From Escherichia coli (GTDB lineage: Bacteria > Pseudomonadota > Gammaproteobacteria > Enterobacterales > Enterobacteriaceae), in assembly GCF_013122565.1 (NCBI RefSeq), contig NZ_CP053258.1: a stretch of 64,000 bases of DNA; one strand, written 5' to 3'. How positions within the stretch are numbered: the first letter of the stretch is position 1; each line of letters starts with the position of its first letter. A program made the position numbers and the translations under genes. The notes beneath the pieces are model-generated. The model saw only the letters and a list, made by a program, of their open reading frames with translations, was not told where the DNA came from and ran no database searches. Below, piece after piece: positions 13,460 through 58,897 of the stretch.

Positions 13460-14647
13460 TTAGAACTGGTAGACTAAGCCCACAGCAACGATATCATCGG
13501 TAGCGATGCCGTTTTCTTTGTAGAAGTCGTCGTCGTTGTCCAGCAGGTTGATTTTGTAATCAACATAGGTGGACATGTTTTTGTTGAAGTAGTAGGTCAT
13601 ACCAATATCAACATATTTAACCAGATCTTTGTTGGTGTAGTGATGATTACCCTGGCTGTCGAAGTTATCACTATTTACACCGCCTAAATCCTTACCTTTA
13701 GATTGCAGGTAAGCGATGGACGGGCGCAGGCCGAAGTCGAACTGATACTGAGCAACAACTTCAAAGTTTTGGGTTTTGTTAGCAATGGCATCAGCATCAC
13801 CGTAACCAGTCATGTTACGGGTTTCAGCATACATAGCTGCTAAGTAAACGTTATTAGCGTCGTATTTAGCACCAACGGTCCATGCTTCTGCTGTTTCACC
13901 GCCAGCAGTTGCATCGAAGCGATCTCCATAACGGGTGTTATGAGTATCTTTGTGAACCTGGTTATCGGTACGGTCAGAGTTAGAATAAGCAGCCCCCAGA
14001 CTTAAACCGAAGTCGAAGTCATAGGAAGTGGACATACCGAAGCCGTCACCGTTCTCTTTAGCTAACTTACGTCCATTACCGTTACCAGATCCTTCCTGAC
14101 CGAACGCTCCACTACCTTCATTATTACCCTGATATTGCAGAGCAAAGTTCAGGCCATCAACCTGACCGAAGAAGCCATTGTTACGGTAGGTTGCAACACC
14201 ATTGGTACGACCGTTCATGAAGTTGTCAGCACCAGCATAGGTATCGCCACCAAATTCTGGCAGCATATCGGTCCATGCTTCTACGTCATATACGACACCG
14301 TAGTTACGACCATAGTCGAAAGTACCATTCTGGCCAAAGCCTAAACCTGCAAATGCCAGACGCGTTGCGGTATTACCTTTGTCACTTTCAGGACCGTTTG
14401 CGCCAATGTTAAATTCCCACTGACCGTAACCAGTGAATTGGTCAGCGATCTGAGTTTCACCTTTGAAACCGATACGGGCATATGACATGTCGCCATCGCT
14501 GCCAGAATCATCAGAGAAGTAGTGCAGGCCCGCTACTTTTCCGTACAAATCCAGTTTATTACCATCTTTATTATAGACTTCAGCCGCATTTGCTGCGCCA
14601 GCAACTAATAACGCCGGGACCAGCATTGCCAGAACTTTTCTTTTCAT
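13460..14647 (-). CDS. yedS: Outer membrane porin YedS (OmpC/OmpF family), apparently intact
   Basis: Uninterrupted ORF 13460..14677; start set at ATG 14647 ([21 protein letters not shown] signal peptide); C-terminal ...VGLVYQF porin signature. Confidence 0.85.
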
Positions 14648-14958
14648 TATGTATTCCCTTGTGATTATAATCTTCATGAATATATCAATAAGTGCCGTTA
14701 TCCAAAAAAAAGCACATTTGGATACTATTCTATGAAGTTCATTTTATTTTAAGAATTACATGTAACAAATGTATTTAAAAGATTTCAAAATGTTTCCAAT
14801 CTATTTAATATAATTCAGAATTATGAATTCTAAATATAAGCATTCATGAAAATTATAGCTGTATATCAATAATTTATGAGTTAACCGGAAAAATAGGTAT
14901 TGTCAATGATTGTTGCGCCAAACGGCAGGTGTGATCACGCGCACATTAATGAAGACAT

Positions 14959-15050
14959 AAAAAAAAGCCGGCATCATGCCGGCCCAAAAAATATAAACAA
15001 GACGATAAAAGGCTAATAACAGGGTTATCATGACATAGAAATCAAAAAAG
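14959..15050 (-). ncRNA. rseX: Candidate small RNA, possibly RseX
   Basis: Minus-strand terminator: GCCGGC-ATCAT-GCCGGC hairpin (14967..14983) followed by an 8-10 nt U-run. RseX is recalled to lie between yedR and yedS. The 5' end is estimated from the recalled ~91 nt length, not seen. Confidence 0.3.
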
Positions 15051-15213
15051 GTATAATTGTATTCAGTGCTAATATATTGTTTAGGTGAATTAATAAAACC
15101 ATTACCAAAGATATAAATAAATCTTTATTGCTGATTTTCCGGTAATTATTGCAGTTGCGCAAAATTTATCTATTTGTTCAAAAAATGATTGAGTCTTGAC
15201 TGGCTCATCCAAT

Positions 15214-15579
15214 GTGGAAAAATGTGACTTTTATCACATAATAGTACTAAGTCTGAATTTTCCGGGTTATCTCAAAATGGAATACGGTTCGACAAAGATG
15301 GAAGAGAGACTCTCTCGCAGCCCTGGCGGCAAATTGGCTTTGTGGGCTTTCTATACATGGTGTGGCTATTTCGTCTGGGCAATGGCGCGTTACATCTGGG
15401 TGATGAGCCGGATCCCCGATGCCCCGGTGTCGGGATTTGAAAGCGATTTAGGATCTACCGCGGGAAAGTGGTTAGGGGCACTGGTCGGATTTTTATTTAT
15501 GGCTCTGGTCGGGGCATTGTTAGGCAGCATTGCCTGGTACACCCGACCTCGTCCCGCACGTAGCAGACGCTATGAATAA
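15214..15579 (+). CDS. yedR: Inner membrane protein YedR
   Basis: ORF 15196..15579; a GTG at 15214 gives the 121 aa I recall. Alternative ATG starts at 15277 (MEYGSTK) and 15298 (MEERL) lie downstream of the CRP palindrome and may be the true start. Confidence 0.65.
   Translation: MEKCDFYHIIVLSLNFPGYLKMEYGSTKMEERLSRSPGGKLALWAFYTWCGYFVWAMARYIWVMSRIPDAPVSGFESDLGSTAGKWLGALVGFLFMALVGALLGSIAWYTRPRPARSRRYE
15223..15238. promoter_or_regulatory. CRP-type palindrome TGTGA-N6-TCACA
   Basis: TGTGACTTTTATCACA read directly; perfect match to both CRP half-sites. Confidence 0.45.
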
Positions 15580-15618
15580 AAACTGCTAAGGTTGCGACTC
15601 TTTGGCAACGGAGCGCGT

Positions 15619-16314
15619 ATGGACTTACAACACTGGCAGGCAGAGTTCGAAAACTGGTTGAAAAACCATCATCAGCACCAGGACGCGGCCCATGACGTGT
15701 GTCATTTTCGCCGCGTCTGGGCTACGGCACAGAAGCTGGCGGCAGATGATGATGTCGATATGCTGGTGATTTTAACCGCCTGTTATTTTCACGATATTGT
15801 GAGCCTGGCGAAAAATCATCCGCAGCGGCAGCGTTCTTCAATCCTGGCGGCAGAAGAGACGCGTCGCCTGCTCCGTGAAGAGTTCGTGCAATTTCCGGCG
15901 GAGAAAATTGAGGCCGTTTGTCATGCCATTGCCGCTCACAGTTTCAGCGCGCAAATCGCCCCCTTAACCACGGAAGCTAAAATTGTCCAGGATGCGGATC
16001 GGCTGGAAGCCCTGGGGGCGATTGGCCTGGTGCGCGTGTTTGCCGTTTCAGGGGCATTGGGCGTGGCGCTGTTTGATGGCGAAGATCCGTTCGCACAGTA
16101 TCGCCCGCTTGATGATAAACGCTACGCGCTGGATCATTTCCAGACTAAGTTGCTGAAGCTACCGCAAACCATGCAAACCGTAAGAGGCAAGCAGCTGGCG
16201 CAGCACAACGCGCAATTTTTAGTCGAGTTTATGGCGAAGCTCAGTGCCGAACTGGCGGGGGAGAATGAAGGTGTCGATCACAAGGTGATAGATGCGTTTT
16301 CACCCGCGGGCTGA
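15619..16314 (+). CDS. yedJ: HD-domain phosphohydrolase YedJ (231 aa)
   Basis: ORF 15592..16314 contains [22 protein letters not shown]...; start set at ATG 15619. Confidence 0.85.
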
Positions 16315-16380: not shown

Positions 16381-17799
16381 ATGCAGGAAAATATATCAGT
16401 AACCGATTCATACAGCACCGGGAATGCCGCACAGGCAATGCTGGAGAAACTGCTGCAAATTTATGATGTTAAAACGCTGGTGGCGCAGCTTAATGGTGTG
16501 GGTGAGAATCACTGGAGCGCGGCAATTTTAAAACGTGCACTGGCGAATGACTCGGCATGGCACCGTTTAAGTGAGAAAGAGTTCGCCCATCTGCAAACGT
16601 TATTACCCAAACCACCGGCACATCATCCGCATTATGCGTTTCGCTTTATCGATCTATTCGCCGGAATTGGCGGCATCCGTCGCGGTTTTGAATCGATTGG
16701 CGGACAGTGCGTGTTTACCAGCGAATGGAACAAACATGCGGTACGCACTTATAAAGCCAACCATTATTGCGACCCGGCGACGCATCATTTTAATGAAGAT
16801 ATCCGCGACATCACCCTCAGCCATAAAGAAGGCGTGAGTGATGAGGCGGCGGTGGAACATATTCGTCAACACATTCCTGAACACGATGTTTTACTGGCCG
16901 GTTTCCCTTGTCAGCCATTTTCGCTGGCTGGCGTATCGAAAAAGAACTCGCTCGGGCGGGCGCACGGTTTTGCCTGCGATACTCAGGGCACGTTGTTCTT
17001 TGATGTGGTGCGCATTATCGACGCGCGTCGTCCGGCGATGTTTGTGCTCGAAAACGTCAAAAACCTGAAAAGCCACGACCAGGGTAAAACGTTCCGCATC
17101 ATCATGCAGACGCTGGACGAACTGGGCTATGACGTGGCTGATGCAGAAGATAACGGGCCGGACGATCCGAAAATCATCGACGGCAAACATTTCCTGCCGC
17201 AGCACCGTGAACGCATCGTGCTGGTGGGTTTTCGTCGCGATCTGAATCTGAAAGCCGATTTTACTCTGCGTGATATCAACGGATGTTTCCCTGCGCAGCG
17301 AGTGACGCTGGCGCAGCTGTTGGACCCGATGGTCGAGGCGAAATATATCCTGACGCCGGTACTGTGGAAGTACCTCTATCGATATGCGAAAAAACATCAG
17401 GCGCGCGGTAACGGCTTCGGTTATGGAATGGTTTATCCGAACAATCCGCAAAGCGTCACCCGTACGCTGTCTGCGCGTTATTACAAAGATGGCGCGGAAA
17501 TTTTAATCGATCGCGGATGGGATATGGCCACGGGTGAAAAAGACTTTGACGATCCGCTGAATCAGCAACATCGTCCACGTCGGTTAACGCCTCGAGAATG
17601 CGCGCGCTTAATGGGTTTTGAAGCGCCGGGAGAAGCGAAATTCCGCATTCCGGTTTCGGACACTCAGGCCTATCGCCAGTTCGGTAACTCGGTGGTCGTG
17701 CCGGTCTTTGCCGCGGTGGCAAAACTGCTTGAGCCAAAAATCAAACAGGCGGTGGCGTTGCGTCAGCAAGAGGCACAACATGGTCGACGTTCACGATAA
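16381..17799 (+). CDS. dcm: DNA-cytosine methyltransferase Dcm
   Basis: 472-aa ORF with C5-MTase motifs [14 protein letters not shown] and ENV. Confidence 0.93.
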
Positions 17800-58711: not shown

Positions 58712-58727
58712 TGTGATTTGTATCACA
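58712..58727. promoter_or_regulatory. CRP-type palindrome TGTGA-N6-TCACA upstream of azuC
   Basis: TGTGATTTGTATCACA read directly, about 80 bp upstream of the azuC ATG. Confidence 0.45.
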
Positions 58728-58809
58728 TAAAGATTGATTTTTGTGATGGTTGTCATATTATAAGCGCAAAGACAATAACACCTGTATAACAAATGGTCGG
58801 AGTGCCGCG

Positions 58810-58896
58810 ATGAAACTGCGCAAGATCCTGAAAAGTATGTTCAATAACTATTGCAAGACGTTCAAAGACGTACCGCCTGGCAATATGTTCCGATAA
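58810..58896 (+). CDS. azuC: Small protein AzuC (28 aa), encoded on the dual-function AzuCR RNA
   Basis: Hand-translated ATG..TAA: MKLRKILKSMFNNYCKTFKDVPPGNMFR; immediately followed by a terminator. Confidence 0.8.
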   Translation: MKLRKILKSMFNNYCKTFKDVPPGNMFR

Positions 58897-58897
58897 C

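Follow-up and report, generated by a model that had tools for sequence, protein, structure and literature searches.

A high-affinity cAMP-CRP operator probably overlaps the core promoter of the Escherichia coli drpB (yedR) operon and represses it

Introduction

Does a consensus CRP site near the 5′ end of a gene lie in its coding sequence or on its promoter? The question is raised by yedR of Escherichia coli, which RefSeq now names drpB and describes as 'cell division protein DrpB'. In the stretch of DNA analyzed here, a 64-kb window of the E. coli chromosome, the gene can be read in one frame from four candidate start codons (TTG at 15196, GTG at 15214, ATG at 15277 and ATG at 15298) to a stop codon at 15577-15579. 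On the same plus strand, the sequence TGTGACTTTTATCACA at 15223-15238 reads as the cAMP-CRP operator core, TGTGA-N6-TCACA. An earlier note placed this sequence inside both the TTG-initiated (127-aa) and the GTG-initiated (121-aa) frames, and the coordinates and reading frame confirm that placement. The same note proposed that the site marks a promoter, that translation begins at ATG 15277 or ATG 15298 and that the gene is controlled by cAMP-CRP. We asked if the site is an operator and, if so, which transcript it serves and in which direction it acts.

Over positions 14903-15600 the window shares 94% identity with K-12 and 99.6% with strain 162.2; within this range, the segment 15186-15303 is identical to K-12. 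Downstream of drpB on the plus strand RefSeq annotates yedJ (15619-16314), which is co-transcribed with drpB, followed by dcm (16381-17799). SMRT-Cappable-seq assigns yedR-yedJ-dcm-vsr to one operon, and Li 2021 (PMC8085971) handles yedRJ as a single unit.

Results

A consensus CRP site precedes drpB

The full 22-bp site, AAATGTGACTTTTATCACATAA, occupies 15220-15241 and is centered at 15230.5. Its core matches the CRP consensus at 10/10 positions with both half-sites exact, and its left flank is AAA, the favored A-rich type. The site had been called a perfect palindrome, a description that holds for the 5 + 5 half-site positions but not for the whole 16-mer, in which the C at position 6 and the A at position 11 are not complementary. 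TGTGA-N6-TCACA has two exact matches in the 64-kb window, where 0.07 would be expected by chance, and in 100 shuffles a count of two or more was never reached. The 2026 Footprint-seq preprint (PMC12871828) lists the drpB site as its reverse complement, taTGTGAtaaaagTCACAttt, and estimates a Kd of 1.9 nM; the sequence of the site is identical in K-12. We also scanned 68 drpB loci from about 19 named genera of Enterobacteriaceae and found the site, with no more than one mismatch, in 65 of them; in 51 of these 65 it was perfect.

A functionless chance match could be imagined here, as the surrounding intergenic DNA is AT-rich and CRP half-sites are short. This explanation has a negligible probability given that the pattern is expected only 0.07 times per 64 kb, that the Kd is in the nanomolar range and that the site is kept between genera despite diverging surroundings. 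We exclude chance because of the count statistics together with the equivalent site, at no more than one mismatch, in nearly all related loci.

Transcription starts just past the operator

Supplementary file 2 of Kim 2012 (PMC3415461) lists a transcription start on the minus strand of NC_000913, at position 2031473. It is 370 nt upstream of the yedJ ATG, and the 51 nt of upstream sequence given with it are identical to window positions 15199-15249. Since the yedJ ATG is at 15619 in the window, the 370-nt distance places this start at the A at 15249 on the plus strand, 11 nt past the CRP site, in agreement with the proposal that the site marks a promoter. The start is represented by 7 reads in one dataset. 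The available portion of the sorted list gives no further start between 15249 and a site inside yedS. Starts upstream of 15196, which the earlier note had named as evidence that would speak against its reading, are likewise absent from this portion of the single dataset. Yahashiri 2020 (PMC7648144) cites a RegulonDB start site for yedR, the SMRT-Cappable-seq supplements held no yedR entry, and the part of the Kim 2012 supplement that was searched yielded no Klebsiella start site for the drpB promoter.

A promoter scan identified the promoter that fits the mapped start. This promoter, P2, spans 15215-15242 on the plus strand and consists of a -35 element TGGAAA (15215-15220), a 16-bp spacer and a -10 element CATAAT (15237-15242) that ends 7 nt before 15249. 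The scan also predicted an overlapping promoter, P1, at 15196-15223 on the same strand, with the -35 hexamer TTGACT (15196-15201), a 16-bp spacer and an extended -10, TGG-AAAAAT (15215-15223). Its predicted start is at about 15230, in the middle of the operator, whereas the start mapped in Kim 2012 fits P2. The first three bases of the P1 -35 hexamer are the 'TTG start codon' at 15196. Over eight Escherichia sequences the -35 and -10 of P1 are invariant, and the CATAAT of P2 varies (CATACT, CATAAC, CACAAT and CATAAA).

Relative to the mapped start, the center of the CRP site at 15230.5 corresponds to -18.5, and the core site covers -26 to -11. The site covers the +1 position of the predicted P1, for which its center would be at about +1. 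The overlap amounts to 2 bp of the CATAAT -10 and 1 bp of the AAAAAT/TATAAT -10. The operator thus overlaps core elements of the promoter that it regulates, as in occlusion-type control, and its center is away from the positions near -41.5, -61.5, -71.5 or similar that characterize class I and class II sites. A center at -18.5, over the spacer and the -10, fits repression by occlusion and not activation.

Kim 2012 contains a second start for this operon, 20 nt upstream of the yedJ ATG (NC_000913 2031123, 13 reads; PMC3415461). It corresponds to window position 15599, within the 39 bp that separate the drpB stop (15579) from yedJ, and with a start at this position part of yedJ(-dcm-vsr) transcription may escape the CRP operator.

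Translation of drpB begins downstream of the operator

The start codon of drpB has been determined experimentally. Yahashiri 2020 (PMC7648144) reported that a stop at codon 10 of the 121-aa YedR model leaves function intact and that, from the chromosomal locus, only the form starting at ATG-22, which is window position 15277, was detected by Western blot; translation from GTG-1 was possible from a plasmid. The authors concluded that GTG-1 is mis-annotated, that ATG-22 is the start and that the promoter lies between them, which gives a drpB coding sequence of 100 aa at 15277-15579 on the plus strand. RefSeq annotates a 93-aa protein (WP_001297704.1) starting at 15298, the beginning of the family-conserved core, and so disagrees with the experimental start by seven codons. 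Each of the two ATG codons put forward in the earlier note is therefore borne out in its own way, 15277 as the start used in the K-12 chromosome and 15298 as the one annotated in RefSeq and conserved between genera. ATG 15277 is limited to Escherichia and the Citrobacter amalonaticus group. Homologues in other genera begin at the equivalent of ATG 15298, with a stop codon directly before this ATG in many of them, and such cross-genus conservation favors ATG 15298 as the likely ancestral drpB start.

The four candidate starts all had weak anti-Shine-Dalgarno scores (-1.5 to -3.8 kcal/mol; random mean, -2.25), which do not set any one of them apart, as Yahashiri 2020 (PMC7648144) also remarked of the yedR starts. 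The 5′ leader from the mapped start to ATG 15277 (15249-15276, plus strand) is 28 nt long and carries no Shine-Dalgarno sequence, and its 3′ part is invariant in Escherichia. The block AATTTTCCGGGTTATCTCAAAATGGA at 15251-15282, which includes ATG 15277 and also lacks a Shine-Dalgarno sequence, is invariant in seven Escherichia sequences; E. albertii is the exception in the genus to the invariance of ATG-22 and the ~26 nt before it. The invariance of this block suggests that it may be a constrained, unconventional translation-initiation region or another regulatory element. We considered a leaderless mRNA starting at ATG 15277 and rejected it: no -10 element fits such a start, and ATG-22 is preferred even on transcripts from an upstream plasmid promoter (PMC7648144).

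Codon-level conservation over residues 1-27 of the long frame, which the earlier note had named as evidence for a coding 5′ end, was looked for and none was seen. Variable sites in the eight Escherichia sequences were counted at codon positions 1/2/3. From 15298 to 15579 the counts were 6/7/54, a pattern indicating that the protein is under purifying selection from 15298 onward. The counts over 15196-15276 were 13/9/10, with no third-position bias, and those over 15277-15297 were 2/4/3. E. albertii carries a 5-bp indel within 15196-15276. The NCBIfam profile NF038392 matches residues 36-120 of the 127-aa reading frame, and a Pfam search with that frame returned no match (PF28000 is precomputed for its homologues). 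By this substitution pattern, the 5′ extension, together with the seven residues between ATG-22 and ATG-29, is free of protein-level constraint.

These results bear on the possibility that the CRP site is truly intragenic, in the coding 5′ end of a 121- or 127-aa YedR. The frame is indeed open from 15196, GTG-1 can be translated from a plasmid (PMC7648144), NC_000913.3 still implies a long YedR, and Footprint-seq labels the site internal to yedR (PMC12871828). However, the mapped transcription start at 15249 is downstream of both 15196 and 15214, the chromosome gives only the ATG-22 form (PMC7648144), the family profile begins at residue 36, and the extension combines its missing third-position bias with an indel in E. 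albertii and stops in other genera. We consider an intragenic site highly improbable. The TTG 15196 and GTG 15214 'starts', which are both upstream of the mRNA start, are annotation artefacts. The Footprint-seq list, in which the strong drpB site is novel and 'internal' to yedR (PMC12871828), carries that label because NC_000913.3 retains the long, 121-aa gene model.

The operator is conserved across genera next to a -10 element

In the 65 loci that carry the site, it lies 47-86 bp (mostly 55-70) upstream of the family-conserved ATG, and adjacency of drpB and yedJ was detected in 66 of the 68 loci. Free variation is seen in the N6 spacer and in the flanks but not in the half-sites, which are fixed, and the reading frame in which the site falls differs between loci. 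Fixed half-sites with a varying spacer, varying flanks and differing frames are the signature of a protein-binding site at the DNA level.

Directly 5′ of TGTGA, the consensus of the drpB loci is TATAA (T 64%, A 88%, T 63%, A 90%, A 92%), which with the first T of the CRP site makes TATAAT. The A at -4 (88%) is outside the 22-bp site, and the TTTTT on the 3′ side does not mirror the 5′ flank, which argues that a -10 element is fused to the operator. A TATAAT abutting the operator would place the transcription start inside the operator in most genera. The TATAAT of other genera corresponds in position to the -10 of P1 in E. coli.

Three loci lack the site at the one-mismatch threshold (L034, L045 and L064). 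In L034, from Leclercia adecarboxylata NCTC13032, the right half-site has been lost at about 1400-1440 of the locus (gaaaaaTGTGATTTATTGCCGG), and the sister Leclercia loci L028 and L037 retain TGTGATTTATTTCACG. L034 is a natural operator knock-out that could be used for testing repression.

The cross-genus conservation suggests that catabolite control of drpB may be old and under selection. More tentatively, the fusion of operator and -10 (TATAA-TGTGA) could itself be ancient, and catabolite repression of DrpB, an accessory protein of the divisome, and possibly of Dcm/Vsr could represent a conserved link from carbon status to cell division or DNA methylation; Escherichia would have acquired an additional promoter, both promoters being shut by the one operator. 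We hold this to be possible, at odds of roughly one in three.

CRP binds the drpB promoter and probably represses the operon

The proposal that the gene is under cAMP-CRP control agrees with published binding and expression data. Drawing on transcriptomes from seven carbon sources and from a crp deletion strain, Li 2021 (PMC8085971) reported yedRJ as a new CRP-repressed operon, and the yedRJ promoter fragment bound CRP in a gel shift. The Kd of 1.9 nM from Footprint-seq (PMC12871828) agrees with this binding. A CRP peak in the drpB intergenic region was found by ETEC ChIP-seq, where a second CRP-like site, at a distance of 293 bp, was taken as the motif. The idea that the site marks a promoter accordingly stands as far as the promoter is concerned, and any reading of it as an activating site does not, as both the geometry (-18.5) and the published expression data favor repression. 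One transcriptome study (Li 2021, PMC8085971) and the geometry together point to repression of drpB by CRP.

Activation of drpB would be the default expectation, since most E. coli CRP sites activate and since a consensus site close upstream of a gene tends to be interpreted as activating. As at lac or gal, the site would then act as a class I or class II site on a promoter located further downstream, and a weak -10-like sequence, GGTTAT/TTATCT, is present at 15265-15272. The mapped start at 15249, however, puts the center at -18.5 instead of -41.5 or -61.5, and downstream of the operator the scan detected nothing resembling a promoter. In addition, yedRJ is classed as CRP-repressed in Li 2021 (PMC8085971), and in other genera the TATAAT abuts the left half-site, so that the start would be inside the operator. 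We regard activation as unlikely.

We conclude, with a probability of about 85%, that the drpB site is a high-affinity cAMP-CRP operator on the core promoter of drpB(yedR)-yedJ(-dcm-vsr), that it lies outside the coding region and that it represses the operon. In the proposed mechanism, RNA polymerase would start at 15249 from TGGAAA-N16-CATAAT (P2), and the upstream overlapping TTGACT-N16-TGG-AAAAAT (P1) may be used as well. Bound CRP, which overlaps both promoters, would exclude RNA polymerase, steric occlusion being the presumed mechanism. The operon would be repressed at high cAMP, that is, on poor carbon sources. Translation begins at ATG 15277, with ATG 15298 as the family-conserved start.

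rseX, a porin gene and a second CRP-like site

On the minus strand upstream of drpB lies the sRNA gene rseX (14960-15049; Rfam RF01401, 94 bits), with an intrinsic terminator found by sequence scan at 14965-14985 on the same strand and a promoter-like site, TAAACA-16-TACAAT, at 15083-15056. Among the 68 loci, rseX is beside drpB only in Escherichia, in two Citrobacter amalonaticus loci and in Salmonella diarizonae. Further away is a yedS/ompC-type porin gene (13460-14677, minus strand), an intact 405-aa ORF with a likely start at MKRKVL (14647); in RefSeq this gene is annotated as frameshifted both in K-12 and in strain 162.2, the closest one. The second CRP-like site, TGTGATCACGCGCACA, with one mismatch, lies at 14930-14945 between the rseX terminator and the porin gene, 293 bp from the drpB site. 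Its K-12 version has a Footprint-seq Kd of 4.9 nM and was assigned to yedS (PMC12871828). This second site was found in all Escherichia loci and in no other genus of the scan.

The drpB site might instead serve a divergent minus-strand transcript, that of rseX or of the porin gene. The rseX gene is upstream on the opposite strand, is silenced by H-NS and has poorly understood regulation, and the second CRP-like site at 14930-14945 flanks it on its other side. Against this, ~181 bp separate the operator center from the rseX 5′ end and >550 bp separate it from the porin start, the site keeps a fixed distance to the drpB ATG in about 19 genera, many of them without rseX at this location, and our search found no literature linking CRP to rseX. 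A divergent target thus appears very unlikely. A CRP-rseX link in its own right was dropped, as the literature search gave no support. Looping between CRP bound at the two sites was also considered and set aside; the spacing varies from 290 to 293 bp in Escherichia, the one genus in which the scan found the second site. If the drpB operator is ancient, then it might also bracket the H-NS-silenced rseX jointly with the CRP site 293 bp upstream that only Escherichia has, an extension that we hold just as tentatively, at odds well short of even.

A near-consensus sigma-70-like site, ATGACA-16-TATAAT (11/12), is present at 15030-15057 on the plus strand, antisense to the rseX 5′ end and promoter and facing drpB. 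No start at this site appears in the available part of the Kim 2012 list (PMC3415461). The site may be a promoter that is silent or masked by H-NS, or it may interfere with rseX.

Discussion

The start re-annotation, the promoter location, CRP binding and CRP control of drpB have each been published already, and a specialist would find none of the drpB operator story surprising. The drpB promoter is an ordinary, known CRP-repressed promoter that looks odd only through an outdated gene model. What is new here is modest and consists of the explicit -18.5 geometry, the operator fused to a -10 in about 19 genera and the evidence from codon positions. The value of the result is mainly one of annotation hygiene, as NC_000913.3 and older EcoCyc releases keep the 121-aa model. 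The result also means that DrpB is under catabolite repression, as yedJ, dcm and vsr probably are too.

The closest parallels are cyaA P2 and the azuC/AzuCR (isrB) promoter, which are CRP-repressed promoters. As at drpB, a near-consensus TGTGA-N6-TCACA overlaps the -10/start region, and cAMP-CRP lowers transcription on poor carbon sources. For IsrB (azuC), Crp is entered as repressor in a table that credits Hemm 2010. The azuC locus, which specifies a small protein and an sRNA, is itself within the window and holds the only other perfect TGTGA-N6-TCACA of the 64 kb, TGTGATTTGTATCACA, at 58712-58727, ~85 bp upstream of a 28-aa ORF, MKLRKILKSMFNNYCKTFKDVPPGNMFR (58811-58897). At the same locus a weaker CRP-like site, TGTGATGGTTGTCATA, at 58742-58757 adjoins a -10-like stretch, TATTATAAG. 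The drpB promoter differs from cyaA P2 and azuC in the products of its operon, namely a division protein, a phosphohydrolase and probably Dcm/Vsr, and, in Escherichia, in that a single operator appears to be common to two overlapping candidate promoters. Our literature search found no published mutational dissection of the drpB operator.

Comparison with the activated promoters lac (-61.5) and galP1 (-41.5) shows the same protein, the same 22-bp consensus and a comparable affinity. The drpB site differs in its center, at -18.5 from the mapped start or at about +1 of the predicted ancestral one, and in that its published control is repression. With a center at either of these positions, CRP would make no productive contact with the alpha-CTD or alpha-NTD of RNA polymerase.

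Finally, the present account shares with Yahashiri 2020 (PMC7648144) the gene and the conclusion on its start codon and promoter, and it differs from that paper in that neither CRP nor cAMP occurs there. The link between promoter and operator comes from combining Yahashiri 2020 with Li 2021, Kim 2012 and Footprint-seq.
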